Shown: piece after piece, positions 36,821 to 64,000 of the stretch
How positions within the stretch are numbered: the stretch's first letter is position 1
How the letters are laid out: each line of letters begins with the position of its first letter
DNA from: Nannocystis pusilla
GTDB lineage: Bacteria > Myxococcota_A > Polyangia > Nannocystales > Nannocystaceae
Reading direction: 5' to 3' (one strand)
Assembly (NCBI RefSeq): GCF_051105105.1
Contig: NZ_CP185339.1
DNA: 64,000 nt
Notes under the pieces: generated by a model
Told to the model about the DNA's origin: nothing
Database searches by the model: none
The model's input: the letters and a program-made list of their open reading frames with translations, nothing else
Made by a program: the position numbers and the translations under genes

Positions 36821-37012
36821 GTGAACGAGCGCACGCAGGCGCAGGGGGCCGCGGGCGGGCCGCCCGCGAGCGCGCGTGCGTGAGGCCGAACGAGGTTCGG
36901 CGCAGCACGCGGACGGGCGAGAGGGCGCTTCGCCGCGCGCGTCGCCGAGCGGGGCCGGGGGGCGCGGGCGAACCTGGTGGTTTTCCCCGGCGGGCCACGC
37001 CAGGGTATTTGC

Positions 37013-40000
37013 ATGGGCGACGCAGGGACAGCCGACCCGGCGAAGTACCGCGCCACCGGACTGCTCAGTCAGAGCGCAGGCGCGGGCATCTACCGCGCGG
37101 TTCGGGTGGAGGACAACCGCGCGGTCGTCATCAAGACGCTCGACCCACGGCTGCGTCCGGCGCGGGAGCTCGAGCGCTTGCGGGCGGAGTACGAGCTCGG
37201 GCGGTCGCTCGACATCCCGGGGACGGTCAAGCCGATCGCGCTGGACACGTACCGCGGCATGCCGGCGCTGGTGCTCGAGCACTTCGAGGGGACGTTCCTC
37301 GAGCAGCTGCTCACGGCGACGCCGCTGCCGCTCGAGCGCTTCTTGACGCTGGCGATCGGCATCGCCGGGGCGGTCGAGGAGCTCCACCGGCGCGACGTGA
37401 TCCACAAGGACCTCAAGCCCGACAACATCGTGGTCGACCCGGTCCGCGGCGAGGTCAAGCTGGCCAACCTCGGGGTGGCGTCGCCGCGGCACCGCGAGCC
37501 CGGGCTCGCGCCGACCGCGGGGATCTTGACCGGATCGCTGCCGTACATGTCGCCGGAGCAGACCGGGCGGATGAACCGACCGCTCGACTTCCGCAGCGAC
37601 CTCTACTCGCTGGGCGTCACGTTCTATCGGATGCTCACCGGGCGCCTGCCGTTCCGCGCCAGCGATCCGCTGGAATGGATCCACTGCCACGTGGCGCGCC
37701 GCGTCACGCCGCCTTCGGCGCTGCGTCCGTCGGTGCCGGAGGTGGTGTCGGCGATCGTGGTAAAGCTGCTGGCCAAGGTCGCGGAGGACCGCTACCAGAG
37801 CGCGCGAGGGCTGCGTCGCGACCTCGAGCGGTGCCTGGCGGCATGGCACGCGCACGGGCGGATCGAGCCGTTCCCGCTCGGCGAGGAGGACCTGTCGGAG
37901 CGGCCCCGCGTGCCGCAGCAGCTGTACGGCCGCGAGCGCGAGCTGGCGGCGCTCCGCGGCGCGTTCGAGGCGATGGTCGAGACCGGAGCGCCGGGGGTCG
38001 TGCGCGTGTCCGGCTATTCAGGGGTGGGCAAGTCGACGCTCGTCCACAAGCTGCAACGACCGATCGTCCAGGCCCACGGGTTCTTCCTCTCGGGCAAGTT
38101 CGATCAGTACCAGCGAGGGATCCCCTACGCGACGCTCTCGCAGGCCTTCCGCGCCCTGGTCCGCGACATCCTCGCCGAGCCGGACGAGCGCGTCAGCGAG
38201 TGGCGCGGACGCTTGACGGCGGCGCTCGGCCTGAACGCGCGGCTGATCGTCGACATCATCCCGGAGCTGGCGCTCGTGATCGGCGAGCAGCCGCCCGTGC
38301 CCGAGCTGTCGGGGCCCGACGCGCAGAGCCGGTTTCACCTGGTCTTTCGCCAATTCCTCGGGGTGTTCACGGCCCGCGAGCACCCCGTGGCGCTGTTCCT
38401 CGACGACCTGCAATGGGTCGATTCGGCCAGCCTGGCGCTGCTCACCCACCTGGTCACGCACCCGGACGTCCATTACTTCCTGTGGATCTGCGCTTACCGG
38501 GACAACGAGGTGAGCGGGGCGCACCCCTTGATGACGGCGCTCGCGCGGGTGCGCGCGGCCAACGTGGCGGTGCGCGACATCTTCCTCGGGCCGCTGTCCG
38601 AGGAGCACCTCGCCGCGCTCGTCACTGCGACGTTCGGCGGGCGCGTCCGCGACGCGGCGGCGCTCGCCCGCCTGATCCACGGCAAGACCGCCGGCAACCC
38701 GTTCTTCGCGCTGCAGTTCTTGAATATGCTGCACCAGGAGGGGCTCATCGCGATCGACCTGTCATCCGGACTGTGGGCCGGCGACATCCCGCGGATCCAG
38801 GCCAAGACGGCGACGAGCAACGTCGCCGAGCTGATGGTGCAGACGCTGCAGCGCCTGTCACCGGCGGCGCGCGAGGCCCTCGAGCTGGCCGCCTGTCTCG
38901 GCGGCGTCTCCGAGCTCGGCCTGCTCGCGGCGCTCGCCGAGCGGCCGGAGGAGGAGGTACGGCGCGACCTGTCGGCGGCGGTCCAGGCGGGGCTGGTGCT
39001 GCGCGACGGCGACACCTACAAGTTCGTCCACGACCGCGTGCAAGAGGCGGCGTTCAGCCTGATCCCCGCGGCGGAGCGGGCGGCCGTCCACCTGCGGATC
39101 GGGCGGGCGCTGCTGGCTCGCCTGGCGCGCGAGGAGCTCGAGGCGCAGCTGTTCGAGGTCGCCGGTCATTTCGAAGCGGGGGCGCACCTGCTCGAGCCGA
39201 GCGAGGAGAAGGTGCGGGTCGCAGCGCTCCACCTGGCGGCCGGACGCAAGGCCCAGGCCGCGACCGCCTACGACGCGGCGGTCCGCTACTACTCGGCCGG
39301 CAGCGCGCTGCTCGGCGCCGAGGCGTGGGACGAGCAGCATTCGCTGGCCTTCTCCCTGGGGTTCGGGCGGGCCGAGTGTGAATATTTGCAGGGCCGATTC
39401 GACGCTGCCGAGTCGCAATTCGGGGCGCTGTTCGAGCACGCGCGGACCCGCCGCGAGCGCGCGGAGATCCGGCGGGTCGAGGTCGATCTGTTCACGAGCC
39501 GGCAGGAGCTCCGCACCGCGGTCGAGCGCGGGATCGAGGGCCTGCAGTGGCTCGGGGTCGAGGTGCCGGTCCACCCGACGCGCGCGCAGGTGCAGCGCGA
39601 GCTGCAGACCATCCAGGAGGCGCTCGGCGAGCGGCGGATCGAAGATCTCGTCGATCTGCCGCCGCTCGTCGACCCCGACATGCGCGCGGCGCTCGGGATC
39701 CTCGCGGTGCTGTTCGCGCCGGCGCTCAACACCGACCCCGAGCTGCCGTTCCTCTGCTATTGCCGCATGGTCGAGATCAGCCTGCGCCACGGCAACGGCG
39801 AGGCCTCGGCGCTCGGCTACGCGTACTTCGGGATGGTGCTGGGCCCGTCGTTCGGCCGCTATCGCGAGGGGTACCAATTCGGCAAGCTGGGGTACGACCT
39901 GGCGGAGCGGCTCGGGCTGGTGGCGTACCGCGCCAAGCTCCACTGCATCTTCGGCGATTGCATCTGCTTCTGGACGCAGCACCTGCGCGGCGCGCTGCGC

Positions 40001-47933: not shown

Positions 47934-50257
47934 TCAGGGGACGTTGAAGGTCGCGACGTCGGTGGGGCTGCCGCTGGCCGGCGGGACGTGAGCGGTGACG
48001 CTCCACGAATGATTGGACCACTGCGAACCGCCGAGGATGCACGGGTTGTCGGCCGGGGTGAAGGTGCACTCGCCCCAGCCGTCGTCGCCGAGCGGGACGC
48101 ACTGGAGGTCCCACTCGGGGAGGCCGCCGCGGAAGGCGGTGTTGACGACGTAGTCGTAGAGGCCGTGCTGCTGGTGCGTCGCGTTCACGTGGATGGTGAA
48201 CTGATGCGGGCTGTTCACGTCCTCGGTGGTGGCGGCCCCGGGCGCGCGGAACACCAGCTTCGGGTATTGCTGGCAGTCGAGGAGGACGCCGTCGCGCGGG
48301 CGGACGATGACGGGGCCGCCCGACAGCGGCTCGCAAGCCGGCCCCGTGGCCTCGCACTCCTTCCAGATCTCGCCGGCGGCGAGGATGATCTTGATCGCGT
48401 CGAACAGCTCGCTGCCGAAGGCCTCCCACCCGAACTCGGCGCCGCCCTCCCAGAAGGCCATGTTGCAGGTCTCGCAGCCGTTCATGGTGTTGCGCAGGCC
48501 GACGGTGGCCAGCGGCGCGACGTAGGGGCCGTCGAGGAAGCCGAGCGTCATCACGAACTTGGCCAGCAAGGTGGCGCTGAGCCTCGGGGCCCATGGCGGC
48601 GCCGAAGTTGTCGAGGAAGCCGTTCACGTGGGTCTCTAGCCCGGTCCGCCAGCCGGTGTGATCCTTGAAGGCGGTGCCGGTGGCGCTCGCAGCGACGGTG
48701 CCGGTGAACTTGTAGGCGGCCTCGATCTCCAGCTCGGGCCGCAGCATGATCGACACCGGGATGGCCAGCGGCAAAGTCCCGAGGTAGAACTCGCCGAACT
48801 CGAGGGACTGGGTGAGGCCGGCCTTGACGATGATGCTGGCGTGGATGGTCGGCGTGATCGCCACGTCCGCGTGGGGGATGCTGAGCCAGTCGACGTCGAG
48901 CTCGAAGCGCTCGAACGTCGAGGCCGGGGGAGAAGTGGAGCTCGCCGTGGCCGCCGAACTTGAACACCAGCCTGGGGCCGCCAGGAGGGGGGATCGGGTC
49001 CTCGTCGAGCGCGAGCGTTCCGAGCTCCACGAGCTCGCCGGAGCCCGCGGGCTCGGGGAGCACGACGATCTCGTCGGGGCACGGCGCCTCGACGCAGGCG
49101 ATGTCGGAGGTGTCGATCGGCAGGTCGCGCACGCCGAAGAAGCCGCCGGCGAGGACGGCGTCGAGGCCGACCGGCTCGCCGAGGAGCACGAGGTCGGCGT
49201 CGTCGTAGGTGACGGATTCGACGCGCAGCATGTAGCCGCGCGCGCCGCCGTGGCCGACGACGACCTCGCCCGCGGCGACGTCGGGGAGCGTCGCCGCGTC
49301 CTTGAAGTGGAGCACGACCTGGCTCAGGTCGGGGGCGGGCTTGACGGTGACGTCGGCGCCGAGGAAGTCGGGCCGCTGCTCGAGGAAGTGGACATCGGGC
49401 TTGTAGTCGAGGTGGTTGGCGTAGATGTCGGTGCCGGCCCAGATCCGCCGCTGGCCGTCGCTGACGACGAGCTCGGGCCGGTGCTTGCCGACGGCGTAGG
49501 TCCACTGCGGCAGGGCGGCGGTCTTGACGAGCTCGGTGGTGCGGCTGCAGGGCTCGTGGATCACGTCGGGCTGGCCGTCGGCGTCGAAGTCGAACTCGCA
49601 GCGCAGCTGGGCTGCCGGGTCGGCGGTGAGCCGCCAGCCGAAGTGGGCGGACACGGGAGCGTCGCCCCAGCCGGCCTCGACGGGATCGAAGCGCTCGACC
49701 GTGAGGGGGGCCTCGTCGCAGGTGTCGTCGCCGCCGATCGCGGCGAAGATCAGGCGCGACTGGGCGGCGTAGGAGAGCTTGGGCCGCTGGACCGGGAGCG
49801 GCTCGCCGAACGCGAGGTCGAGCTCGTAGTAGCAGTCGGGCAAGCGCACGCGCAGGAGGTAGGTGTCGCCGGTGAGGCGGGTGGTGTGGACGTCGAAGGC
49901 GGTCGGCGGGTGGATCGGGTCGAGGCCGAGGTTGATGCCCTGGGTGGTGTAGGCGGCGAGGGTGAGGCGACGGTGGTCGGCGGCGCACTGGGGGGTGACC
50001 GCGAAGGACAGCTCGACGACGTCGCGGGGCCGCGCGAGCTCGGCGAGGCCGGTGGCGAGGTCGGTGGTGACGTCGAGGGTGCCGTCGTCGTGATGCAGGC
50101 GCAGCTTGGTGTCGGTGAGACAGTCGAGCCCGGGAGCGGCCATGAGGCTGGCCTCGCGCGGGGAGATTTCGGTCTGCGGCGCGAGCTCGGGGTCGCAAGC
50201 GGCGACGACTGCGAGGCTGACGGCAGAAATGAGGAGGCGCGGCGGAAGAGCGGGCAT
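47934..50257 (-). CDS. Large lipoprotein split over three frames by two 1-nt frameshifts, both at C-homopolymers (~48925 ccccc; ~48590 cccc)
   Basis: Start MPALPPRLLISAVSLAVVAAC (lipobox) in track ORF 48551..50938. Continues as ...FERFELDVDWLSIPHADVAITPT... in ORF 47788..48864, then ...LLAKFVMTLGFLDGPYVAPLA... to the stop in ORF 47934..48569. Removing one C at each site restores a single frame. Confidence 0.55.
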
Positions 50258-50582
50258 GGTCGTTCTCGCCGGCGGCAGTGCAGCGCCCATGCCACGCGCG
50301 TCGGCGGGGCGCAGGGCGGTTGGAGGCGGGTTGTGGTCGGGCGGTCGACACCCGCCGCGTGGGCGTGGTCCGGCCGACGACAGGGGCGGGAGAGCGAGGG
50401 TCGGGGCGCCGGGTGAGGGTCGGCGGCTCGTGGGCACCAGCGGGTGGCGAGCCCGGAGCGGACGGCCTCGGCCTCGCGCGCGTGGCCGTCGGCGGACGCG
50501 AGGTTCACGGCCGGCGCGCGGCGCTGCCAACCGGGGCGGCCTCGCGCCCCCAGTCGGGCCCGGGACTTGCACAGGCGCGGGC

Positions 50583-51512
50583 ATGCGACCTGTCTTGCAG
50601 TCCTGGACCCCTGTCCGCCTCCTCCTCGCGTCCCTGCTGTGGACCGCCTGTGCCCCCGAAGACGAGGAGGTCGAGCTCCGCGTCCTGCTCACCGGCGGCA
50701 ACTCGGGCGGCGGCCCGGTGTTCAACACCCACGCCCTCGACGACCACCAATTCTCCGAGCTCGGGCCGCTCGGGGTGCCGCACGTCGGCGCGGGGCTCGA
50801 CGGGGTGGCGCTCGCGGGCGACGTCGCGTTGACGGAGCTGGGAGTGGACACCGGCGAGCTCGTCGGTGTGGACGGGGTCGGCGAGGAGCACCGCGGGGCC
50901 GCGCTGCTGGGCTCGGAGTGGACCATCGGCTTCAACATGGGGCTCGTGTCGCTGCCGATGTTCCTGCTCGACGTGCTCGAGATCGACGGCGTGCCGCACT
51001 ACCAGTTCTTCCACCACCAGGGCGACGTCGAGGTGCCGAACTGTCCCGAAGGCCAGGGCGGCCCCGGCCTCGCGCGGGTGCTGTCGGGGCTCACCATCCA
51101 CGAGGCCACCGGCGAGGTGATGTCCGCGCCGGGGCTGCTCTACCTGGCCTGCGACACCGGCGCGACCGGCAAGGCGGCGGCGCTCGGGTACTATGATTTG
51201 GCGAAGACGACGCAAGACCTCGAATTGTTCGAGACGGCGATCCGGGTGGTCCGCGCCGATTATTGCTACGACGGGAGCGCGCACACGCAGGCCGGGGTCT
51301 CGGTGGTGCTGGAGGACGTGTGGGGGATCCACGGGACCACCGACGAAACCTTCAAGAGCCCGGTGGAGGCCGCGTGGGGCCGGGCGGGGCTGATCTGCCG
51401 CGGCAAGGGCCGGCTCGACGCGATCGATTGCCACGACAAGATCCCCACGTGTCCGGTGGGGGCGACGTTCGCGTCGCTGCCGGACGCGCTGTTCATCACC
51501 CGCCTGCCGTGA
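50583..51512 (+). CDS. ADYC-domain lipoprotein
   Basis: Start MRPVLQSWTPVRLLLASLLWTAC (lipobox) in track ORF 50106..51512. C-terminal motif VVRADYCYDGSAHTQAG is the ADYC signature. Confidence 0.7.
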   Translation: MRPVLQSWTPVRLLLASLLWTACAPEDEEVELRVLLTGGNSGGGPVFNTHALDDHQFSELGPLGVPHVGAGLDGVALAGDVALTELGVDTGELVGVDGVGEEHRGAALLGSEWTIGFNMGLVSLPMFLLDVLEIDGVPHYQFFHHQGDVEVPNCPEGQGGPGLARVLSGLTIHEATGEVMSAPGLLYLACDTGATGKAAALGYYDLAKTTQDLELFETAIRVVRADYCYDGSAHTQAGVSVVLEDVWGIHGTTDETFKSPVEAAWGRAGLICRGKGRLDAIDCHDKIPTCPVGATFASLPDALFITRLP

Positions 51513-54516: not shown

Positions 54517-54526
54517 TTTGTCGTTC

Positions 54527-54928
54527 ATGGGTGAGGTACTCCAGCTCAGCGATCTGCAGCTCGGCCTGCTGCGGATCTTGTGGGACCGCGGGGAGGCGAC
54601 GGCGCTCGAGGTGCATGCGGCTCTGGTCGAGCAAGAGCGGGGGCTCGCGCCGACGACGGTGTCGACGATGCTGTCGCGGCTGGAGAAGAAGGGGACCATC
54701 GCGCACCGCACGGAGGGCCGGCAGTTCATCTACCGGGCGCTCGTCTGTGAGGTGGACGTGAGGCGCTCGATGCTGGGCAGGCTCACCGACTACTTCTTCG
54801 GCGGGGACGTGGCGGCGCTGGTCAGCCACCTCGTCGAGGGCCGCGACGCCGAACCGGACGACGTTGCGCGCCTGCAACAACTATTGGCCGAACGATCCGG
54901 CGGAGCTGAGGAACACGACGATGTTTGA
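54527..54928 (+). CDS. BlaI/MecI/CopY-family transcriptional repressor
   Basis: MGEVLQLSDLQLGLLRILWDRGEATALEVHAALVEQERGLAPTTVSTMLSRLEKKGTIAHRTEGRQFIYRALV. The track ORF begins 3 codons earlier at a TTG. Confidence 0.8.
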   Translation: MGEVLQLSDLQLGLLRILWDRGEATALEVHAALVEQERGLAPTTVSTMLSRLEKKGTIAHRTEGRQFIYRALVCEVDVRRSMLGRLTDYFFGGDVAALVSHLVEGRDAEPDDVARLQQLLAERSGGAEEHDDV

Positions 54929-57143
54929 TCTTGCGATCGATCCTGCCGGCCTCGCCGGTCTCGCGGCGCCTGCCGCTCACACGACGGTGAGCTGGCTCGG
55001 CACCTACTTCGTCCACTCGACGGTGCTCATCGGCGGCGTGTGGATGTTCAGCCGCTTCCTGCCGCTCGACGCGCTGACCCGCAGCTTGCTGTGGAAGACA
55101 TCGCTGGTCGGCGGGCTGTTCACGGCGACGCTGCAGACGGGGCTCGGGGTCGAGCCGATGTTCGGCCGCGTCACCGTGGCGGCGAGCAGCCCGGACCTGG
55201 GCGCGCCCACGACGGCCCCGGCGCCGCCGCCGGTGGTGGAGGAGGAGCCGGCGACGCTGCTGGTGCCGTTCACCCGCGCGTGCGTCGGCTGCGAGTCGCA
55301 CGTGGTAGTCGTCAGCGACGACGACATCACGGCGGTGTTCGCCTCGCCGCCGCTGTTCGTCGACGCGCCGGGCTGGGCGGTCGCGCCGACGCCGGCGCTG
55401 ATGCCCGCGCCGACGACCGAGCCGCCGCTGGCGGCCGCGCCGATGCAGATCGCTACGGCGGGTCCGGTCGGGGGCGTGAGCGCGGCGGTGTGGGCATTCG
55501 CGGGGCTGTTCGTGTTCGGCGCCGCGGCCTCGCTCGGCCGGCTCGGGATGACGTTCTCTCGCCTGCGCCGCGGGCTCCGCGGTCGTCGCCTGCTCGGCTC
55601 GGGCTCGCTGCGCGAGCGCCTGACGCGGCTGCTGGCCCACGCGCGGCTGCCCGGCCACAGCGTCACGCTGAGCGAGTCGGCGGACATCAGCTCGCCCATC
55701 GCCCTCACCGGCCGCGAGATCGTGGTGCCGGAGCAGGTGCGCGAGCTGGCGCCGCGGCAGCAGGAGGCGATGCTGGCCCACGAGCTGGCCCACGTGCTGC
55801 GCCGCGATCCGGCGTGGCAGGTGATGGCGGCGTTCGTCGAGTCGCTGCTGTTCTTCCAGCCGCTCAATCGAGTGGCCCGTCGCGGCATGCAGGAGGCGGC
55901 GGAGGAGCTGTGCGACGACTGGGCGGTCCGCCACACCGGTTCGGAGGTGCACCTGGCGCGCTGCCTGGCCGAGGTCGCGGCGTGGCCTGGCCATCGGGAC
56001 ATGTCGGCGTTCGCCAGCCCGATGGCGGGGCACGCCTCGCAGCTGGTGCGCCGGGTGCAGCGCCTGCTCGACGTGCACCTGCGCGACCGCGGGCTGTGGG
56101 CCCGGCGCTGGCGGGTGGCCCTCGGCGCGGCGCTGCTGGCGATGGTGACGTTCGGCGCGCCCGGGCTGTCGATCGCGGCCGAGGCGCAAGATGCCCCCGA
56201 GTGGCCGACGACGCCCGACAACGGGCCGGCGCCGCAGCCGTCGCTGTCGTTCGTCCACGTGCCCGAGACGCCGATCGTGGCCGTGCGGACGCCGCATAGC
56301 CACGCGGTCCACGGGCACGACATCATCGTCGTCGAGCATGCGCAGGAGCTGACCCGCAAGCAGAAGCGACTGCTGCGCCGCGCCGAGCGGCACGCCCGCA
56401 AGGCGGCCAAGCTGCGCGCCAAGAGCGGGCTGTACGCGGTGCCGGCGACGCACGCGGTGTACGTGCCGGTGTCGCACGTGACGCCGCCGACGCCGCCGAC
56501 GCCGCCGACGCCGCCGACGCCGCCGACGCCGCCGACGCCGCCGACGCCGCCGAGCTTCAAGGTCGTCGTCGCGCACGACCACGACGACTGCGACGACGAC
56601 GATCACGACGTGATGGTCCACCGGATGGCCGTCCCGCACGTGGCCGTCCACCCGCCCGTGTTCCACGTGCCGGACATCGACGAGGAGGCGATCGCGGCCC
56701 AGGCCGAGGCGATCGCGGCCCAGGTCGAAGCCCAGCTCCAGGGCCTCGACGAGCAGATCGAGCGCGAGCTGGAGAGCATCGACTTCGACAAGATCGCCGC
56801 CGACGTGGAGCGCGGGGTCAAGGCGTCGCTCCGCGGCGTCGAGCGGGCCCGCGAGGACGCCGAACGGGCCCGCGAAAACGCCGAGCGGGCGCGCGAGCGG
56901 GCGGACCGGGCGCGCGAGCAGGGCGACCGGGCGCGTGAACAGGGCGACCGGGCGCGCGAGCGGGCCGAGCGGGCGCGCGAGCGGGCCGAGCGGCAGGCCG
57001 AGAAGGGCCGCCGCAAGGCCGACGCTTCGCGGGCCGCGGCCGCGGTCCGCAGCGCGGTCGACGAGGCGCTGCGCGACGGAGTGATCGACGCCGAGGAGCA
57101 GCGCAAGATCAGCGAGGCGGCCCGCCAGGTCCGCATGAAGTGA
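54921..57143 (+). CDS. BlaR1/M56-family membrane metallopeptidase signal transducer with unusual C-terminus ((PPT)8 tract plus charged coiled-coil RAREQGD repeats)
   Basis: Start MFDLAIDPAG overlaps the repressor stop. Four TM helices. HELAHVLRRD zinc motif. A 9-bp tandem repeat (ccgccgacg x8, ~56473-56550) encodes PPTPPT... C-terminal ERARENAERARERADRAREQGDRAREQGDRARERAERARERAERQ. Confidence 0.8.
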   Translation: MFDLAIDPAGLAGLAAPAAHTTVSWLGTYFVHSTVLIGGVWMFSRFLPLDALTRSLLWKTSLVGGLFTATLQTGLGVEPMFGRVTVAASSPDLGAPTTAPAPPPVVEEEPATLLVPFTRACVGCESHVVVVSDDDITAVFASPPLFVDAPGWAVAPTPALMPAPTTEPPLAAAPMQIATAGPVGGVSAAVWAFAGLFVFGAAASLGRLGMTFSRLRRGLRGRRLLGSGSLRERLTRLLAHARLPGHSVTLSESADISSPIALTGREIVVPEQVRELAPRQQEAMLAHELAHVLRRDPAWQVMAAFVESLLFFQPLNRVARRGMQEAAEELCDDWAVRHTGSEVHLARCLAEVAAWPGHRDMSAFASPMAGHASQLVRRVQRLLDVHLRDRGLWARRWRVALGAALLAMVTFGAPGLSIAAEAQDAPEWPTTPDNGPAPQPSLSFVHVPETPIVAVRTPHSHAVHGHDIIVVEHAQELTRKQKRLLRRAERHARKAAKLRAKSGLYAVPATHAVYVPVSHVTPPTPPTPPTPPTPPTPPTPPTPPSFKVVVAHDHDDCDDDDHDVMVHRMAVPHVAVHPPVFHVPDIDEEAIAAQAEAIAAQVEAQLQGLDEQIERELESIDFDKIAADVERGVKASLRGVERAREDAERARENAERARERADRAREQGDRAREQGDRARERAERARERAERQAEKGRRKADASRAAAAVRSAVDEALRDGVIDAEEQRKISEAARQVRMK

Positions 57144-57317: not shown

Positions 57318-57872
57318 TCAGGGGGCCGCCCAGGTGCAGGGGTCGGGCGTGGTCTCGCCGCCGGCGTCGGGATCGGCGGGCAGGTCGAGGGAGACGACGA
57401 GGCGGTCCTGCAGCTTGATCGCTCCGGCCAGCGCCTTGTACGGGGCGATGCCCCACTGGGAGGGCACGAGCGTGAAGTCGGCGCGCAGGCGGTCGCCCTC
57501 GACGCGGACCGGGGCGCGCACCGGAGCTGTCCTTCCGAGCATGACCAATCGGCCATCCAGGATCCCGCCGGGGGTGAGCGCCCCGGTGAAGGTGACCTCC
57601 GGGTGCTGCGCGGTCAGCAGGATCTCGTCGGTGATGTTGCGCTGGATCTTGGCCTTGTCGCCGGCGCCGAGGCCGTCGACGTCGACGCGCCCGTCCTTGC
57701 CGACGACGCCGTCGACCTTCAGCGTGGCCGGCCAGAAGCGACCGCTGAGCGCGGTGCCTTCGCGGCGGATCTCGAAGCGACCCAGCGACAGCCGGAGATC
57801 GTGGGCGAGCCGCGCGAGCAGGCCGTCCTTGAACGTGAAGACGTGGATCGTGCCTTTGTCCTGCGTGTTCAT
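57318..57872 (-). CDS. YceI-like family protein
   Basis: Start MNTQDKGTIHVFTFKDG in track ORF 57318..58199. 184 aa with a YceI-like beta-barrel pattern (FTGALTPGGILDGRLVMLGRTAPV). Confidence 0.7.
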   Translation of the reverse strand: MNTQDKGTIHVFTFKDGLLARLAHDLRLSLGRFEIRREGTALSGRFWPATLKVDGVVGKDGRVDVDGLGAGDKAKIQRNITDEILLTAQHPEVTFTGALTPGGILDGRLVMLGRTAPVRAPVRVEGDRLRADFTLVPSQWGIAPYKALAGAIKLQDRLVVSLDLPADPDAGGETTPDPCTWAAP

Positions 57873-58183
57873 GGGAATTCCCGGTCCGTTGCCTGCGTTG
57901 CCAGTCCGTCGCCGGCGGGCGGCGGGTCGAGGACGGCCACCGCGAGAGCAGCCAATTCCACATTGCGGATGTGGATGTAGGGGCGCATCGTCGCTTCGAG
58001 CGTGCTGTGACGGGCTAGCTTCTGCAAGGCCAGCGGAGGCACACCGACCTGCGCGGCGAGCTTCAGGGCGGTGTGTCGGTGCATGTGAGGGGCCTTGGGC
58101 GCAACACCCGCCTCCCGCTGGATGGCATCGACCCGGGTGGCGTCTCCGCGAGCTCGACCCCGAAGCGGCCCACCCGCGGACAT
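57869..58183 (-). pseudogene. 3' fragment of a tyrosine recombinase/phage-integrase gene (catalytic H-x-x-R ... Y box only)
   Basis: Track ORF of 104 aa. PHMHRHTALKLAAQVGVPPLALQKLARHSTLEATMRPYIHI is the integrase C-terminal catalytic region (HxxR, catalytic Tyr). No N-terminal or core domain upstream. It abuts the YceI start. Confidence 0.6.
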
Positions 58184-58265
58184 CCCGTGGCGGCGTCATC
58201 TCGACCGGACGCCCGGCGGCTCGGGGGGCGGCGTCTCGTCCATGCTCCCAGGTTTTAAAGCTCCG

Positions 58266-58874
58266 TTACCCGCTCTTCTCCCGCGAGGGATGAGCCCCGA
58301 CGCCGAACTGGTACCCGAACGCTGCGATGTCGGCCGCGTAGATCTCTTCGACGATCGACCTGGTCTCGTCTTCGTAATAGTCAGTGTAGAATTTGTGTTC
58401 AGTCTTGAAGACATGCGGCAACTGTCTGGCCCCGATCTGAAGATGTGAGCAGATCCTGGCGAAGTCGCTCTGAAGCGCCTCGAAGCGGCCGATGAAATCG
58501 ACGGCGATCGTTCCCCCGACGCTCAGGCGTGTCACCTGCGGCGACAACGCGTCTTCTAGCCACAGTGCCGAGGATGACAGCCTGACCCCGTTCTTCAGCC
58601 GTCGTAGCATCTCGGAGAAGTCATAGTCGAACAGACGCTGATGATCTCTGCTCCAGAAGTACCTGGACACCAACCAGTCCCATGGATTGCGGACGAACGC
58701 GAACTTGTAGTACGTGCGAAACCTGTCGGGGAAATTTTCGCTGTAGAAGGCCGCCGTCGCGTGTTTCAGATCCACGTCCCTTCGATCGGCCGCAGCATCG
58801 AAGACCTTTTCGATGCTGGTTCCCCCCGTCTTGTTGATATGGATAAAGATGAATTTGTGAGCATCGGAGATCAT
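58266..58874 (-). CDS. Sulfotransferase family protein (PAPS-dependent; 5'-PSB-like KTGGTS and 3'-PB-like RNPWDWLVSRY motifs)
   Basis: 202 aa starting MISDAHKFIFIHINKTGGTSIEKVF. GC visibly lower (~55%) than surrounding genes. Confidence 0.7.
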   Translation of the reverse strand: MISDAHKFIFIHINKTGGTSIEKVFDAAADRRDVDLKHATAAFYSENFPDRFRTYYKFAFVRNPWDWLVSRYFWSRDHQRLFDYDFSEMLRRLKNGVRLSSSALWLEDALSPQVTRLSVGGTIAVDFIGRFEALQSDFARICSHLQIGARQLPHVFKTEHKFYTDYYEDETRSIVEEIYAADIAAFGYQFGVGAHPSREKSG

Positions 58875-58901
58875 GAGGAGACCCCAGAGGAAGTCGGTGC
58901 G

Positions 58902-59774
58902 TCAGATGGATGGGGCGTCCGGCTCGCGGTCGGCGCCACCGATGAGGATCGCATACACGACGGCCTCCGTGGCCGGCTCCAGGCCGAGCAGCGCGTTGAA
59001 GGGCTCGTCCCAGAAGCCGCCGACGGGCACCGCGTGAAGGTCGAGCGCCGTGGCCGCGAGCAGGATGTTCTGCGCGATGTGCCCGGCTTCCAGCAGCGCG
59101 AATCGATACCCGCGCTCGAGGTACTTCGCCTGGACGCGGGCGAACACGACGGTGAGCGCGAGCACCAGCGGAGGCCCGGAATCGAAGAGATCGGGCGGCA
59201 GGAACTCTCGCATCACGTCGAAGCCGGCGACCGGACGCACGAGCTCGAGGGCGTGATCGAGCGCGGCGTAGTGATACACGCCAGGAGTGAGCGCTTCGAG
59301 CGAGAAGACGAGCGGGTAGACCTCCACCGGGTAGAGCCCGCCGGGCGACGGCGCGGCGCGGCGTGGAACCTCCAGCGGCGCGGTGACGCCCGCCGAGAGC
59401 TCGAGCAATTTCGCCAGCTCGCGCTGGGAGACGGTTCTACGCGAGAACGTCCGCGCCGATCGCCGCCGGCGGATCAACGCCTCGAAGCTGGCGGTCAGCG
59501 GCTCCGGCCGCGGCAGAGCGATCGTGGGCGCGCCGGGGTATCGCTTGTAGTCGAGGTTGAGCGTGAGGGCCTCGACCTCCGCGACGGTCAGGGTGCCGGT
59601 CCACTCCGGACCCATGGAGCTGTGCTGGTGATAGACGCGTGAGGCCGGCCAGCGGCACTCCGCGGGCAGGCCGAACGGCGCGAATTGAGCCCGGCGCTCC
59701 ACGTCCATGCGCTGGCGCAGCGCCTCCAACGCGCGGCCGATCTGCTCGGCCGTCCACGGCGCTTCGTCGTTCAC
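58902..59774 (-). CDS. SagB-type dehydrogenase / nitroreductase-superfamily protein (McbC/SagB-like)
   Basis: GTG start (VNDEAPWTAEQ...) with GGAGGTG 5 nt upstream, in the frame of track ORF 58902..61061. RRRSARTFS...RRAAPSPGGLYPVEVYPLVF...AKYLERGYRFALLEAGHIAQNILLAATALDLHAVPVGGFWD matches the SagB-type dehydrogenase domain. Confidence 0.7.
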   Translation of the reverse strand: MNDEAPWTAEQIGRALEALRQRMDVERRAQFAPFGLPAECRWPASRVYHQHSSMGPEWTGTLTVAEVEALTLNLDYKRYPGAPTIALPRPEPLTASFEALIRRRRSARTFSRRTVSQRELAKLLELSAGVTAPLEVPRRAAPSPGGLYPVEVYPLVFSLEALTPGVYHYAALDHALELVRPVAGFDVMREFLPPDLFDSGPPLVLALTVVFARVQAKYLERGYRFALLEAGHIAQNILLAATALDLHAVPVGGFWDEPFNALLGLEPATEAVVYAILIGGADREPDAPSI

Positions 59775-61061
59775 GTCGCACCTCCGAGGTTCTGCTCGGG
59801 CGCAACGACGGCGAGGAGCCCGAGACCGACGAGTTTTTCGGCGAGGGCGAGCTTGGCGGGGGCGGTCAGGCCGTCGTCGATGTCGGCGATCCGAAACGGA
59901 CCCTCCGCGGCGAGGATGCCACGCAAGGCCGCCTCTGCGACCCTGCCTGTCCGGAGCATGCCGCCTCCGGCGAGGACGAGCACGGCTGCGTCGGCGTCTC
60001 GCGTGAGCTGGAATTCGAGCTCCGGCCGGCGCGCCACCAGGGTCTGCAACGAGATCTCGTGCGCCATGAACGACGATTCCAGGCGGGCGAGCGGAGGAGC
60101 CATCATTCCCTGCAGGTGGCGCTGCGCGAGGCCCTCGCACAGATCCTCGAGACTCAAGTTCGCAAGCGCCTCGCGCACCCGCTCGAGGCGGGCCGCGAAC
60201 TCTCGGCGGAGCGGCTCGTGCCGATGTCCGTCGAACAACGCGCCCGCCGGGAGCGGGGCCGTGAAATCGCGGGTCCGGGCGAGGCTCGCCCGCAGGAGGT
60301 CCAGCACGGAGCTCCACTGGAACGGCTTGAACACGACAGTGAGGGAGAACGAGGCTGATTCGTTCGTGACCTCGTGGACGAAGCCGCGGGGGAGGTAGAG
60401 CAGGTCGCCGGGTTCGAGGACCAGGTCGTGCGTCGGCTCCCCGAGGTCGGCCCGGGAGTGCATGCCCGGACCCTCGGCCTCGACGCGGGGAAAGATCTGC
60501 CATCGCTTCGAACCGGAGATCTGGAGCGTGAAGATCTCCGTCTCGTCGTGATGCGGGCCCAGGCCGGCCGCCCTGGGGGGCGCGATGTAACACGAGAGCG
60601 AATCTTCTGGGGTGCTGGAGCGTGCGCTCCATCTGCCGCAACATCGCCATCACGGGGGCGCCGGGATCCAGGAAGCATTCCATGCGCCGCAGCCGAATCG
60701 GGCTTCCGAGCAGCACACGCTCGTGGAGCTCGTCGAGCGCGGCCGGCGGAGCTGCCGGCCAATGGCCGTCCTGCGACGGTGTGGTGATCGAGCGCCGGCC
60801 GAATATCCCCTCTATCGAGAGGTAGCGCTCGACCTCGGCGAGGTGGATGAGGTCTTTATAGTAGTCGCGCCTCCCGCGGGCCAGGTGGAGCGGGCGTCTC
60901 CCCCAGTACTCCGAGCAGAACGCGTGGAACGGCAGCGGCTCGATGAGCGCGGCGAACGACCAGGGCGCCGCGAAGACGGCGGAGCCCTCGCCGCGAACGA
61001 GGAAACGCTCCCCGAGGTCGAGGTCACGCGGAAGCCCAGCGGGACGGCCGTGCATCGACAA
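59771..61061 (-). CDS. JmjC/cupin-4-like Fe(II)/2OG oxygenase (HHDE facial triad) with apparent 1-nt frameshift at a G/C4 run (~60610)
   Basis: N-terminal part MSMHGRPAG...FHAFCSEYWGRRPLHL...MERTLQHP in the frame of ORF 58902..61061. Continues in another frame as EDSLSCYIAPPRAAGLGPHHDETEIFTLQISGSKRWQIFP...LEPGDLLYLPRGFVHEVTN (track 59771..60463). Deleting one C in cacccca joins them. Confidence 0.65.
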
Positions 61062-61328
61062 TAGGTGGGACGGAATGTCGGGGGCTCGATGGAGCGAATG
61101 ATCGAACGTCGTTGGCAGCCGCCGTAAGGCGTTCTTCTGGTGTGATTGTTGGTTCAGAACCGAGCCTCTCGAATTCGACCTGCCGCGCCGTCGGGCGGCC
61201 GGACGTGGCGATGATTCAGCGCTGCTGTAACGAAGCTAACCTCACTCGATGATTCGCCGGCGACATATTCGACAAGGGCTCGGACTCGGCTCATTTAACA
61301 TACCGCCAAATGCACCCGGAGGATTGGG
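61062..61328. promoter_or_regulatory. Divergent promoter region between the oxygenase/SagB/sulfotransferase operon and the precursor-peptide genes; AT-richer; GGAGGATTGGG-ATG RBS for the precursor
   Basis: 267-bp intergenic stretch with reduced GC. A strong SD lies immediately before 61329. Confidence 0.5.
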
Positions 61329-61610
61329 ATGGCAGACAAGACGAAGCAGGCCAAGTTCGACGAGATTTTGGGACGCGCGATCCGTGACCGAGAGTTCAGG
61401 ATGAAGCTCGTGAACAACCCGAAGGCGACGGCCGCAGAGGTCGGGCTGACGGAAGAGGAGGCGAACCTGATCACGGGCGGTCTGGCGATCGGGAATACGT
61501 TGCTCTCGCCGGGCAGCGTCGCGTGGTGCACGGCCAAGACGTGCTACGAGAAGGGCGATTCGCGCTCTCTCGACATCGACCCGGTCAAAAAAGGCGGCGG
61601 TCAGCCGTAG
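61329..61610 (+). CDS. Putative RiPP precursor peptide with NHLP (nitrile-hydratase-leader-like) leader, GG cleavage motif and Cys/Ser/Thr core
   Basis: MADKTKQAKFDEILGRAIRDREFRMKLVNNPKATAAEVGLTEEEANLITGG | LAIGNTLLSPGSVAWCTAKTCYEKGDSRSLDIDPVKKGGGQP. The leader aligns residue-for-residue in character with the NHLP/TOMM-type leader pattern (..KAW.DeaFkq.LL.nPkaa..e.G..lpe). Strong RBS. Confidence 0.6.
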   Translation: MADKTKQAKFDEILGRAIRDREFRMKLVNNPKATAAEVGLTEEEANLITGGLAIGNTLLSPGSVAWCTAKTCYEKGDSRSLDIDPVKKGGGQP

Positions 61611-61622
61611 GCGAGGCGACAC

Positions 61623-61874
61623 GTGCGGTCATTCGCCGAGAGCTGCGCCTTACTCGACAGCATCGTCGGTCGCTGCGTGCGCGAGCCGGAGTTCGCGGAG
61701 CGCGTGCTCGACGAGCCCGAGGCGGCGCTCGCCGCCTACGGGCTCGCCAGACACGAGCTCGACGACTTCCTCGCGCTCGCCGGCGACCACAAGCAGGAGG
61801 CCGCGGAGACCTGGGCGGCGATCCGGGCGGGCATCGAAGCCCGGCGGCGGGCGCGTCGTCATCCTCGCGGATGA
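61623..61874 (+). CDS. Second NHLP-like leader-containing small protein (GTG start), possible second precursor or degenerate copy
   Basis: VRSFAESCALLDSIVGRCVREPEFAERVLDEPEAALAAYGLARHELDDFLALAGDHKQEAAETWAAIRAGIEARRRARRHPRG. The central segment parallels the leader of the upstream peptide. No GG/Cys-rich core is apparent. Confidence 0.4.
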   Translation: MRSFAESCALLDSIVGRCVREPEFAERVLDEPEAALAAYGLARHELDDFLALAGDHKQEAAETWAAIRAGIEARRRARRHPRG

Positions 61875-61890
61875 GGCCGATGCGAGCGGT

Positions 61891-62535
61891 TCACGGCTCG
61901 GCCCAGAGCCTCAGCAGTCCATCGTAGGACCTGCGGAGCCGATCGCCTTCTGCCTGGGTCCCGCCCCCGAAGAGCTCGAGGTAGTGCAGCGCGCAGCCCA
62001 TGTCGTAGAGGATCTCTCGCTGGGCCGGGTCGCGGACCCGGCTCTGAACTCGAAGTGTGCCGCTCCAGCGCGTCCCACGAGTCACTGGAGCGACACGATG
62101 CGACGCCGACGCAGGGAGCACGACGCACACGCCAGCGCCTTCCCTGTACGTCTCGTCGCCGTAGCCGCTGTCGATCAGGAGCTCGCCGCCGTCATAGTCG
62201 GCCGGATCGCTCAGGAGGACGGTGGCGAACGCGTCGACGCGAGCCAGAGCGGTGCGCTCGCCGCCTGGGGGCGGGTGAATATCGGTACAGCGCCCCATTT
62301 CGTGGCACGCGAACGTCACGGGGGCGACTGCGCTCGGCTGGACGCCGAGGCAGAAGAGGGGGTGGGCACGCAGCGCGTCCGCCAGGCGCCGGCCGGCCTC
62401 GCCCTCGACCTCTGCGTCGACTTCGCTCGCTACCCGCGAGGTCGGTCTGCCGCCGCGAACGCGACCGGAGAGCGATTCTGCCAGTCGGGCGGCCGCCGCG
62501 GCGGGCAGCACGTCGTGCAGGCGGATGATCATCAT
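61891..62535 (-). CDS. PKHD-type (PiuC/YbiX-like) Fe(II)/2OG hydroxylase paralog with atypical first metal motif (HEM instead of HxD)
   Basis: Start MMIIRLHDVLPAAAAARL in track ORF 61891..62913. LLSDPADYDGGELLIDSGYGDETYREGAGVCVVLPASASHRVAPVTRGTRW parallels PiuC-type LFLSDPxxYxGGELVV...SxLHxVxPVTRGxR. Confidence 0.65.
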   Translation of the reverse strand: MMIIRLHDVLPAAAAARLAESLSGRVRGGRPTSRVASEVDAEVEGEAGRRLADALRAHPLFCLGVQPSAVAPVTFACHEMGRCTDIHPPPGGERTALARVDAFATVLLSDPADYDGGELLIDSGYGDETYREGAGVCVVLPASASHRVAPVTRGTRWSGTLRVQSRVRDPAQREILYDMGCALHYLELFGGGTQAEGDRLRRSYDGLLRLWAEP

Positions 62536-62611
62536 GCAGAATGCATGGACCAGGGGAGGGCGGCAGGCAAGGACCGGGCCCAATCTCAGGGTCTGCAGAC
62601 AGGTGCGAATC

Positions 62612-63259
62612 ATGCCCATGTGCTTCGTCATCAAGAATGTATTGAGTCTGGAAGACCTCACGCAAATCCGCGCGTCGCTGATGAATGAGGCGTTCATCGA
62701 CGGCCGGGCAACGTCGACGCTCGCAGGCAAGAATAACCTCCAGCTCCCGCAAGAGGGGGCGACGTACGAGGCGGCCAGCGCGCTGGTGCGGCGCCGCCTG
62801 CTGGCGAACGAGAGCTTCCAGCTCGCCGTGTACCCGCGAACCCTCACGTCGCCGCTCTTCAGCAAGTATGAGATGGGGATGGAATACCCCGAGCACGTCG
62901 ACAGCGCGGTCATGGGCGGGTGCCGGGCCGACGTCGCGGTGACGCTGTTCCTCAGCGAGCTCGATGCCTATGAAGGCGGCGAGTTGGTCGTGGACACCGG
63001 GAATGGCGAGCGTCGCTATCGACTCGACGCGGGCGACGCCATCGCCTATCCGGCGTCGACGCTCCATCGCGTGGCTCGTGTCGCCCGCGGGACGCGGCTC
63101 GTCGCGGTGATGTGGGTGCAGAGCCTGATCCGCGATCCCGCGAAGCGACAGCTCCTCCACGACCTCGGCTCCGCCGTGAATGACCTGAAGGAGAGCGTCT
63201 ACAGCGCGCGAGTGCGCCGCAGCCACGCGAACCTGCTGCGACTGTGGGCCGAGCTCTGA
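62612..63259 (+). CDS. PKHD-type (PiuC/YbiX-like) Fe(II)/2OG hydroxylase, canonical HVD...H...R
   Basis: Start MPMCFVIKNVLSLEDLTQIRASL in track ORF 62525..63259. EHVDSAV, LFLSELDAYEGGELVVDTGNGERRYRLDAGDAIAYPASTLHRVARVARGTRLVAVMWVQSLIRD closely follows the E. coli PiuC/YbiX pattern. Divergent from the paralog, sharing a ~76-bp intergenic region. Confidence 0.75.
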   Translation: MPMCFVIKNVLSLEDLTQIRASLMNEAFIDGRATSTLAGKNNLQLPQEGATYEAASALVRRRLLANESFQLAVYPRTLTSPLFSKYEMGMEYPEHVDSAVMGGCRADVAVTLFLSELDAYEGGELVVDTGNGERRYRLDAGDAIAYPASTLHRVARVARGTRLVAVMWVQSLIRDPAKRQLLHDLGSAVNDLKESVYSARVRRSHANLLRLWAEL

Positions 63260-63295
63260 TCGCCGGCGGCGGCGGCGGCGGGGGCTGAGCCGCGT

Positions 63296-64000
63296 TCAAA
63301 GCGCGCCGCGGAGGTGCTCCACCGTGCGCAGCGCCAGCGCGATCACGGCGAGGGTCGGATTCGCATAACCTCCGGTGGGGAACACGGAGCTGCCGGCGAT
63401 GAACAGGTTCTCTATCCCATGGACCTTCGCGTCGCGATCGACGACCCCAAAGCGGGGATCCGTGCTCATGCGCGTCGTCCCGAGGTGATGGCAACCCCAG
63501 GGGCGATAATGGTCCTTGTTGGTGGGCTGCGAGGGCCAGGGAGCGTCCCTCGTCACTGCGAGCTCGACGCGGCCCTCGCCGTGGCGCTCGAGGGCGGCCG
63601 CGACGATCTCGGCGGTGGTGCAGATGCTGTCCCAGTCGAGCGGCGTGAGCTGCCAATCGAGGCGAGCGACGGGCACCCCGAAGGCGTCGAGCTCGTCGGC
63701 GAGGGTCACGCGGCTGTCCGGGTTCGGGCTTTGCTCGGCGCGCAGCAGCAGCCGCACGCGGGCGACGTCCGGATCGGAGCTGCCCTCCGGGGCGTCGTCC
63801 GGCCACAGTTGTACGGTCGCGTTGAGCAGACGATGAGCGCGCTGCGCCGCTGCGGTCAGGCCCAGCGCCGACATGGTCGCGTGGCCGAGGGCCGGGTCGA
63901 TGTGCTCTTGATAGGCGTGCCACCGCCCTCGGCTGGGCAGCGCGGCGATGCCGATCTGGACGTGCGGGTGCTCCATGAACCAGCGGCCCACATGATCGTG
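63296..64000 (-). CDS. GMC-family FAD oxidoreductase, C-terminal part (5' end beyond window)
   Basis: Track ORF 63296..63991 is open to the window edge. HHLGTTRMSTDPRFGVVDRDAKVHGIENLFIAGSSVFPTGGYANPTLAVIALALR is the GMC_oxred_C signature. Confidence 0.8.
   Translation of the reverse strand, partial: HDHVGRWFMEHPHVQIGIAALPSRGRWHAYQEHIDPALGHATMSALGLTAAAQRAHRLLNATVQLWPDDAPEGSSDPDVARVRLLLRAEQSPNPDSRVTLADELDAFGVPVARLDWQLTPLDWDSICTTAEIVAAALERHGEGRVELAVTRDAPWPSQPTNKDHYRPWGCHHLGTTRMSTDPRFGVVDRDAKVHGIENLFIAGSSVFPTGGYANPTLAVIALALRTVEHLRGAL

Follow-up and report, generated by a model that had tools for sequence, protein, structure and literature searches.

A probable incomplete copy of a conserved azole-type RiPP cluster family in Nannocystis pusilla

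Among peptides that are ribosomally made and modified after translation (RiPPs), the thiazole/oxazole-modified microcins (TOMMs) include a group with nitrile-hydratase-like leader peptides (NHLPs), as cited in PMC7726476 from Haft et al. 2010. Here, we describe a block of genes related to these systems at positions 57869 to beyond 64000 of a 64,000-nt stretch of Nannocystis pusilla DNA (the window; contig NZ_CP185339.1, assembly GCF_051105105.1). The block encodes two small precursor-like peptides, pepA and pepB, that are transcribed divergently from an operon of JmjC oxygenase, SagB-type dehydrogenase and sulfotransferase genes, followed by a pair of PKHD-type genes and a partial gene for a FAD oxidoreductase of the GMC family. 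We consider it likely that the block is a real but incomplete, eroded or mosaic copy of a conserved RiPP cluster family of the TOMM or linear azole-containing peptide (LAP) type.

The resemblance to NHLP-leader TOMM clusters and to microcin B17 (McbBCD) lies in the precursor leader, which is long, helical, of the NHLP clan and closed by GG, and in a SagB/McbC-type dehydrogenase with a K-Y pair; relatives of the locus additionally share with them a fused TIGR03882 plus TIGR03604 cyclodehydratase and a C39-peptidase ABC exporter. In contrast to those clusters, the window peptides fail the NHLP model TIGR03793 and sit in the sister Os1348 family, the family core is a short conserved motif instead of a variable Cys/Ser/Thr-rich region, and the family has in addition one to three JmjC enzymes, the PKHD pair, a 430-residue protein with a kinase-like fold, and sulfotransferases. 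The copy in the window also differs from them in being without a cyclodehydratase.

The closest studied system is Os1348-Os1351 (cluster OS3) of Pseudomonas sp. Os17, where loss of an 85-residue PF14407 protein lowers antibiotic activity, and where the genome encodes this protein and a SagB-domain protein but neither sagC nor sagD (Takeuchi et al. 2020, PMC7726476). Both loci encode a small helical PF14407/NF038399 protein (crystal structure 6LK7 for Os1348) along with a SagB-domain protein, neither has a YcaO in the vicinity, and both pepA and pepB match the same hidden Markov model (HMM) as Os1348. In Os17, however, the partners are a GNAT protein, a HEXXH protein and a 650-residue SagB-domain protein; JmjC, PKHD and sulfotransferase genes are absent, as is a peptide with a GG motif plus a CTxKTC core. 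A second point of comparison is the curacozole pathway (CzlA/CzlD/CzlBC/CzlI), a YcaO/dehydrogenase azole RiPP pathway that uses an iron- and 2-oxoglutarate-dependent (Fe/2OG) peptide hydroxylase of the JmjC subfamily, an enzyme that needs core-flanking sequences (PMC11575548). Curacozole itself is a cyanobactin-like macrocycle made from a different precursor, with neither a PKHD pair nor sulfation, and its JmjC enzyme (CzlI) resembles YxbC, whereas the JmjC of the family described here lies nearest to MINA53, NO66 and YcfD. Bacterial PF08007 JmjC homologs have been found in RiPP-like genomic contexts, and some eukaryotic JmjC proteins bear fused domains that resemble the RiPP recognition element (2025 survey, PMC12710340). 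As far as the literature found shows, the present cluster family, which belongs among the TOMM/NHLP-type RiPP clusters, is uncharacterised: full-text searches (subscription-only papers lay beyond their reach) returned no description of it, and no precedent for its combination of tailoring enzymes was found among characterised RiPP pathways.

The cluster family and its precursor-like peptides

The comparison set consisted of nine independent loci in which SagB is 47-66% identical to the window SagB, namely Methylobacterium aquaticum (L001/L004), L084, L085, L087, L088, L089, L090, L091 and L092, scored with HMMs built from the family. The preliminary description of this DNA had proposed an RiPP-like system in which the enzymes belong with the peptides, and had suggested looking for the same gene set in related genomes. 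The peptide genes are indeed kept beside the enzymes in these loci (pepB in all nine, pepA in eight; Table 1), and this synteny, together with the SagB-pepA fusions described below, bears the proposal out. Eight of the nine also encode a fused YcaO protein that passes both TIGR03604 (269.5 bits, cutoff 219) and TIGR03882 (48.1 bits, cutoff 36.9), and that the NCBI Prokaryotic Genome Annotation Pipeline (PGAP) names 'TOMM precursor leader peptide-binding protein'; the presence of this fused TOMM cyclodehydratase argues that the family uses canonical YcaO/SagB chemistry. Judged from its genes, the family consists of TOMM/azole-type RiPP clusters whose oxygenase tailoring is unusual. The question of whether a YcaO gene lies beyond the window or is replaced by non-canonical chemistry, left as an either/or in the preliminary description, is thereby largely answered at the level of the family, the sequence read for this copy ending at 64000.

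In most relatives YcaO follows SagB, directly or within a few genes, and the L087 operon runs JmjC-SagB-YcaO-PhyH-unk426-glycosyltransferase-radical SAM-GMC. L089, a metagenome-assembled genome of the Deltaproteobacteria, has SagB-pepA-pepB together with JmjC genes, and YcaO is absent within 10 kb. A complete cluster is present in a cultured strain, M. aquaticum DSM 16371 (L004), on contig NZ_LABX01000191.1 at 977-21813. SagB has hundreds of relatives, nearly all of them metagenomic bar M. aquaticum, and the nearest, also metagenomic, is 66% identical; 79 more distant SagB loci (32-47% identical) shared no cluster genes with the family except YcaO-like genes adjacent to SagB in eight, and were left out of the comparison. 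The family protein of about 430 residues (unk432) has 57 homologs in a profile search, all labeled hypothetical, and carries the conserved motifs KGLEP and CCQPQNxCxDGGFVDLDSL; its AlphaFold2 model (mean predicted local distance difference test score, pLDDT, 91) gives weak matches to protein-kinase folds (top E 4e-4, TM 0.39). An ATP-sulfurylase/APS-kinase gene, L088:16481-18253, accompanies the L088 cluster. Beside the same core cluster, L088:223-5823 holds two YcaO-TfuA pairs of the thioamidation type and a cupin, one of the TfuA proteins giving a faint PF14407 match. Assignment as a graspetide cluster, considered in view of the ATP-grasp contexts in which PF14407 was originally defined, was rejected because none of these loci showed an ATP-grasp gene.

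Neither window peptide reaches a curated cutoff. Against NF038399 (Os1348 family of the NHLP clan, cutoff 40 bits), pepA scored 36.2 bits (E 4.6e-9) and pepB 25.1 bits (E 1.4e-5); against PF14407 (cutoff 48 bits) the scores were 25.7 and 24.5 bits; and against TIGR03793 (cutoff 50.9 bits) pepA scored 21.3 bits (E 1.8e-4) while the HMM scan gave no match for pepB. Their syntenic orthologs just pass NF038399 (40.9 bits for L084 pepA and 40.5 bits for L085 pepB), and in tblastn comparisons pepA and pepB matched the peptides of syntenic loci with E values of 1e-18 to 1e-28, well past chance. By orthology, and at the borderline by score, the window peptides are assigned to the Os1348 family of the NHLP clan. 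The NHLP leaders of the preliminary description therefore stand as a relationship at the level of the clan and fall short as members of TIGR03793, the peptides sitting in the sister family.

The pepA leader comprises residues 1-51, with the GG at residues 50-51, and is followed by a 42-residue core containing two Cys and four Ser, as had been described, and three Thr where four had been counted. Within the core, the motif GSVAWCTAKTCYEKG (residues 62-76) precedes a variable 17-residue tail. The family is rare: an exhaustive HMMER search of 1.84 billion representative proteins returned 51 relatives of pepA, nearly all metagenomic; three long repetitive proteins in the match list (P0229, P0245 and P0254) were rejected as compositional false positives. 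Inspection of 43 short sequences of the family, made up of 41 short representatives, the window pepA and one SagB fusion tail, showed the core consensus V-A-(W/F/Y)-C-T-x-(K/R)-(T/I)-C-(N/Y)-E-x-G in 29, the window pepA included; in 10 of those 29 it lies exactly at the C-terminus. The metagenomic proteins P0077, P0085, P0091 and P0101 carry a pepA-like leader and core at the C-terminus of SagB, ending in GGRAVMYCTSKTCYENG. These may be enzyme-substrate fusions, or they may result from a missing stop codon conserved in one lineage; the occurrence of pepA fused to SagB in one lineage is further evidence of a direct functional link.

pepB is conserved over its full length (53-64% identity to its counterparts in the first-fetched relatives, and recognized by HMM in all nine), with two conserved Cys near the N-terminus (SCxLLDxIVGRC) and no GG motif. 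Its single-sequence AlphaFold2 model is all-helical, and its top three matches in the Protein Data Bank are to Os1348 (6LK7), at a level that is not significant (E ~1). In comparisons with solved structures, pepA and pepB both gave weak matches to 8TB1 (an NHLP leader chimera), 6LK7 and nitrile hydratase alpha chains, the similarity to 6LK7 being limited to ~40 N-terminal residues (E 0.016-0.33). A Shine-Dalgarno sequence (GGAGGA) stands 5 nt ahead of the pepA ATG; a promoter and terminator scan of the divergent region was without result and found no sigma-70-type consensus there.

These data bear on whether the enzymes instead act on a non-peptide substrate, with the two small open reading frames (ORFs) coincidental or spurious. 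PGAP labels both peptides hypothetical proteins, both score below every curated HMM cutoff, and we know of no established peptide substrate for PKHD/PiuC enzymes. Yet conservation of the peptides reaches E values of 1e-28, they stay syntenic with SagB in all nine relatives, orthologous peptides pass NF038399, and in some relatives pepA and SagB are joined in one protein. A non-peptide substrate is effectively refuted by this synteny and these fusions, and we regard it as very improbable.

Completeness of the Nannocystis pusilla copy

To characterize the gene content of the N. pusilla copy, the relatives' YcaO, second JmjC (JmjC340) and unk432 were compared with the whole 64-kb window by tblastn, and no match was found, confirming the earlier statement that the window holds no YcaO gene. 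In the protein database, no N. pusilla ortholog occurred among the 32 matches for YcaO or among the 57 profile matches for unk432, in searches that are word-index based rather than exhaustive and that pseudogenes escape. The same database does hold the N. pusilla sulfotransferase, SagB, pepA, pepB and PKHD-1, and the M. aquaticum YcaO is present within the cluster of match P0130, showing that the search does reach the YcaO family. No C39 transporter was found among the window ORFs scanned against Pfam, although no dedicated whole-window search was run for it. Where relatives usually have YcaO, the window SagB is followed by the sulfotransferase gene (27 nt downstream) and then by an integrase remnant. 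A YcaO with a leader-binding partner, the hallmark of a TOMM or linear azole cluster, is present in eight of the nine relatives and absent from the 64-kb window. With no YcaO in 64 kb, no N. pusilla ortholog of YcaO or unk432 found, and a frameshifted JmjC gene, a reading of the block as a compact and complete system is not supported. From the missing genes and the frameshift we infer that the N. pusilla copy as it stands is probably unable to make the azole product of the family.

The window SagB, which is 100% identical to the NCBI entry 'SagB/ThcOx family dehydrogenase [Nannocystis pusilla]', clearly passes TIGR03605 (Table 1), as expected from its earlier description as a SagB-type dehydrogenase. 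Residues K217-Y218 are invariant in 22 family sequences and align with K201-Y202 of McbC; we take this K-Y pair of McbC/BcerB-type azoline oxidases to be their catalytic active-site motif. Its nearest solved relatives are 3EO7 and the azoline oxidases CyaGox, McbC and BmdC. The TIGR04509-TIGR04511 system, which we take to be Haft's 'NHLP-related peptide + SagB-related dehydrogenase' system, resembles the window in that a small NHLP-related peptide is paired with a dehydrogenase of SagB-like type, but membership was rejected because the window SagB scores 89 bits against a TIGR04511 cutoff of 240.

The SagB GTG start codon overlaps the stop codon of the JmjC gene (GTGA). The JmjC gene, on the minus strand, is split by a 1-nt insertion in a C4 run at 60609-60612, and tblastn accordingly recovers two segments in different frames that meet at 60606/60610. 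Removal of 1 nt yields a 429-residue protein that is colinear with six homologs, gapless at the junction, and retains an intact HHD...H motif. GenBank numbering runs directly from SagB (XWX14652) to pepA (XWX14653), with no JmjC protein accession between them; the proteins of the locus are numbered XWX14651-XWX14656 (WP_434427081-86). The JmjC oxygenase gene named in the preliminary description is thus present in the operon, but its reading frame is broken by the overlooked frameshift, which may be real and recent or may be an assembly error. A GC3 frame plot intended to gauge the assembly error rate was too noisy to use. Through an ortholog, the big JmjC is closest, among solved structures, to the ribosomal oxygenases (ROX) MINA53, NO66 and YcfD. 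Enzymes of this type hydroxylate protein side chains.

Several observations weigh against the incomplete-copy interpretation. The JmjC frameshift is a single homopolymer base in a single-contig 12.2-Mb assembly and may reflect a sequencing error, since the two parts of the gene otherwise align with homologs in perfect colinearity. The window stops inside the GMC gene, and the GMC fragment is 58% identical to residues 242-470 of the L087 GMC; as this L087 ortholog is the last gene of a YcaO-containing operon, more cluster genes may follow beyond 64000. No break is found in SagB, PKHD-1, pepA, pepB or the sulfotransferase, and catalytic residues are kept, which argues against long-standing decay. 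The absence of YcaO from both L089 and the Os1348 system of Os17 (PMC7726476) indicates that a YcaO-free mode of action exists somewhere in the wider group. Finally, no product of any family member has been observed.

The GMC fragment and the homopolymer frameshift, with its fully colinear repaired protein, are what would be expected of a complete cluster whose cyclodehydratase, kinase-fold protein and exporter lie just past 64000, upstream of the GMC gene, and whose JmjC frameshift is an assembly error. However, the missing N. pusilla proteins among the YcaO and unk432 matches, from a search that recovers the M. aquaticum YcaO, and the sulfotransferase and integrase remnant that occupy the place beside SagB where YcaO usually lies, make a complete cluster distinctly unlikely. 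The block could instead be a YcaO-free variant like L089 or Os1348-Os1351, in which pepA and/or pepB undergo non-azole modification by GMC, SagB, the sulfotransferase and the Fe/2OG oxygenases, or an unlinked cyclodehydratase is borrowed. The L089 gene content and the loss of antibiotic activity in the Os17 mutant, in a genome without sagC/sagD, lend this some substance, and all local ORFs but JmjC are intact. Yet the window SagB shares 60-66% identity with YcaO-linked SagBs against 47% with that of L089, its azoline-oxidase K-Y motif is preserved, pepA keeps both azole-type core Cys, and JmjC, which is retained in every YcaO-free relative, is the very gene that is broken here; a YcaO-free variant is therefore an unlikely, though not negligible, explanation. 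An incomplete, eroded or mosaic copy remains our preferred interpretation.

Tailoring enzymes and the origin of the block

The preliminary description listed two PKHD hydroxylases, and only the first of them stands as an enzyme. PKHD-1 passes NF003974 (Table 1), contains the HVD...H...RGTR residues of an intact PiuC/YbiX-type Fe/2OG dioxygenase, and is 51-60% identical to its cluster-linked orthologs, its nearest solved structures being 3DKQ and PiuC. PKHD-2, in contrast, falls below the NF003974 cutoff and does not have the HxD...H iron triad. None of the four full-length PKHD-2 sequences aligned contains the HxD motif (the L084 copy ends before that region); the distal His, too, is absent from L001 and L088, and in L084 it is displaced. 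PKHD-2 is probably non-catalytic and, being kept beside the active-type PKHD-1 in many of the relatives, is perhaps a conserved pseudo-enzyme that serves as a partner subunit or scaffold for PKHD-1. The one notable inverted repeat, 61891-61917 / 63233-63259, reflects the 3' ends that the two PKHD genes share as paralogs.

The sulfotransferase, named by PGAP 'sulfotransferase family 2 domain-containing protein', contains a K-T-G-G-T-S loop at residues 15-20 for binding of 3'-phosphoadenosine 5'-phosphosulfate (PAPS), and its PF03567 score places it in the Sulfotransferase family 2, with the peptide as its putative substrate. A 468-bp section of the gene (58294-58761) is 93% identical to L093:10042-10509 of Nannocystis sp. 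RBIL2, where the copy is 5'-truncated, lacks the PAPS loop and lies in a low-GC patch at an unrelated locus with no other cluster gene. The occurrence of this truncated copy at a locus without cluster genes indicates that the window sulfotransferase was acquired separately, and its movement or decay appears to be independent of the RiPP genes. The sulfotransferases of the relatives (L085, L087, L088 and L091) are of the PF13469 type, not PF03567 as in the window. A role in the pathway nevertheless stays plausible, since sulfation recurs in the family. Of the sulfation proposed earlier as a tailoring step, the enzyme is therefore present, whereas a shared origin with the cluster is contradicted by its separate history and different family. 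No solved relative of the sulfotransferase was found by sequence. Nannocystis sp. ILAH1 has a third member of this sulfotransferase family, of 111 residues.

The left edge of the block is marked by a fragment matching the last ~60 residues of the catalytic domain of a tyrosine recombinase/integrase (PF00589 E 2.3e-5, profile positions 113-169 of 172; NF040815 E 6.7e-4). The fragment lies 82 nt from the sulfotransferase stop codon, a gap that leaves the 5' two-thirds of the integrase gene missing. The integrase 3' fragment noted at the start of the block thus holds as a remnant, with a match that is below threshold. The GC dips described previously were reproduced: the sulfotransferase gene has the lowest GC of the block genes (0.56), followed by the divergent intergenic region (0.60), pepA (0.62) and PKHD-1 (0.66), against 0.72 in the rest of the window. 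At 90% identity, SagB, pepA, pepB and PKHD-1 each form a singleton protein cluster. The SagB matches listed include no further Nannocystis homolog even though other Nannocystis genomes are in the database, and the relatives nearest to the locus come from an alphaproteobacterium and from metagenomic contigs whose GC is 52-64%. Together with the integrase remnant, the GC dips and a nearest other SagB of 66% identity in a metagenome, the singleton proteins agree with the earlier proposal of horizontal acquisition, and the view of the cluster as a horizontally acquired accessory element is supported at the level of sequence. An island bounded by an integrase was, however, not found: the integrase piece is sub-threshold, the 64-kb window contains no tRNA gene, no flanking direct or att-like repeat was found, and the right edge of the block falls beyond the window.

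ORF listing, translation and HMM scans recovered every gene named in the preliminary description at its given position (Table 1). The left flank of the block consists of ordinary genes (YceI-like, a BlaI/BlaR1-like pair and a large kinase). On the plus strand, 54518-57143 encodes the pair of a BlaI-type repressor (PF03965) and a BlaR1-type M56 peptidase, the C-terminal half of which consists of tandem repeats: (PPT)n from 9-nt units at ~56500-56555, and charged heptads from 21-nt units at 56819-57028. Further upstream are an ADYC-domain protein (50106-51512) and, at 36977-42718 on the plus strand, a 1913-residue signaling protein that combines Ser/Thr kinase, AAA_16 ATPase, GAF and HisKA/HATPase histidine-kinase domains.

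Table 1. Features of the N. pusilla block with HMM scores (cutoffs in parentheses), and occurrence of the family genes in the nine relatives
Feature	Coordinates in window	Strand	Score or other evidence	Relatives	Copies in relatives
Integrase 3' fragment	57869-58183	-	PF00589 24.7 bits (27.1), below cutoff		
Sulfotransferase (Sulfotransfer_2), 202 aa	58266-58874	-	PF03567 55.9 bits (22)		
SagB/McbC-type flavin mononucleotide (FMN) dehydrogenase, 290 aa	58902-59774	-	TIGR03605 115.5 bits (78.4)	9/9	
JmjC_2 (PF08007) gene, ROX-type, frameshifted	59771-61061	-	C-terminal half 41 bits (22)	8/9 (big JmjC)	
Low-GC divergent intergenic region	61062-61328	.	GC 0.60; GGAGGA 61318-61323		
pepA, NHLP clan, 93 aa	61329-61610	+	NF038399 E 4.6e-9	8/9	
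pepB, NHLP clan, 83 aa	61623-61874	+	NF038399 E 1.4e-5	9/9	
PKHD-2, divergent paralog	61891-62532	-	NF003974 109 bits (143), below cutoff	6/9	L085:7262-7861; L001:11502-12092; L088:7460-8038; L084:4735-5109
PKHD-1, 213 aa	62618-63259	+	NF003974 217 bits (143)	7/9	
GMC oxidoreductase, 3' part	63296 to beyond 64000	-	PF05199 92 bits		
Fused YcaO, 694-769 aa				8/9	
unk432, 420-433 aa, without Pfam or NCBIfam match				7/9	L084:6080-7378; L085:16103-17404; L001:13205-14503; L087:13927-15207; L088:13918-15216
PF13469 sulfotransferase				4/9	
C39-peptidase ABC exporter				3/9	L087, L091, L092

A proposed pathway and its significance

From the gene content of the family, we infer the following order of reactions and sites of modification. 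pepA would be made with its helical NHLP-clan leader ending in GG, and the fused leader-binding/YcaO cyclodehydratase would turn both core Cys (V-A-W/F/Y-C-T-x-K-T-C-N/Y-E-x-G) into thiazolines, which the SagB FMN dehydrogenase would then oxidize to thiazoles. The ROX-type JmjC and the PKHD-type Fe/2OG enzyme, the latter paired with its dead paralog, would hydroxylate side chains, and optional decoration could be provided by a sulfotransferase with PAPS supply, the GMC oxidoreductase, PhyH, a glycosyltransferase and the kinase-fold protein. Export would follow through the C39-peptidase ABC exporter, with cleavage after GG; the conserved pepB would be an Os1348-like helical partner. Of this set, the N. 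pusilla copy, presumably acquired horizontally, keeps pepA, pepB, SagB, both PKHD proteins and GMC, with JmjC frameshifted; in the 64 kb it is without the cyclodehydratase, the second JmjC and the 430-residue kinase-fold protein, the exporter also being counted as lacking, and it has gained a foreign sulfotransferase beside the integrase remnant.

A bolder scheme, which we consider improbable, joins several of these elements in a single reading. The product would be a heavily oxidized, sulfated or glycosylated peptide-derived signal, metal binder or cofactor-like compound rather than a conventional bacteriocin, built on the invariant C-terminal motif (W/F/Y)-C-T-x-K-T-C-N/Y-E-x-G. In the same scheme, the enzymatic apparatus would be without earlier example among RiPPs: the winged-helix domain of the ROX-type JmjC would act as the leader reader, the active and dead PKHD proteins would form a heterodimer, the kinase-fold protein would be an enzyme and pepB a leader-like helper, and the YcaO-less subset in N. 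pusilla would be functional, with SagB chemistry other than azoline oxidation.

The value of the Nannocystis copy is mainly as a case of cluster erosion or mosaicism, and it is a poor starting point for product discovery. The complete cluster of M. aquaticum DSM 16371 is the better experimental entry and, because this strain is cultured, makes the question of the family directly testable; the family as a whole is a good lead for genome mining. If the proposed pathway is correct, the family would represent an unexplored branch of azole-type RiPPs, with a tailoring set that comprises a ROX-type JmjC, a PKHD enzyme with its conserved pseudo-enzyme, sulfation with dedicated PAPS supply, and a kinase-fold protein. 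PiuC/YbiX-type enzymes would then gain their first candidate peptide substrate, and the Os1348/PF14407 proteins a biochemical context.

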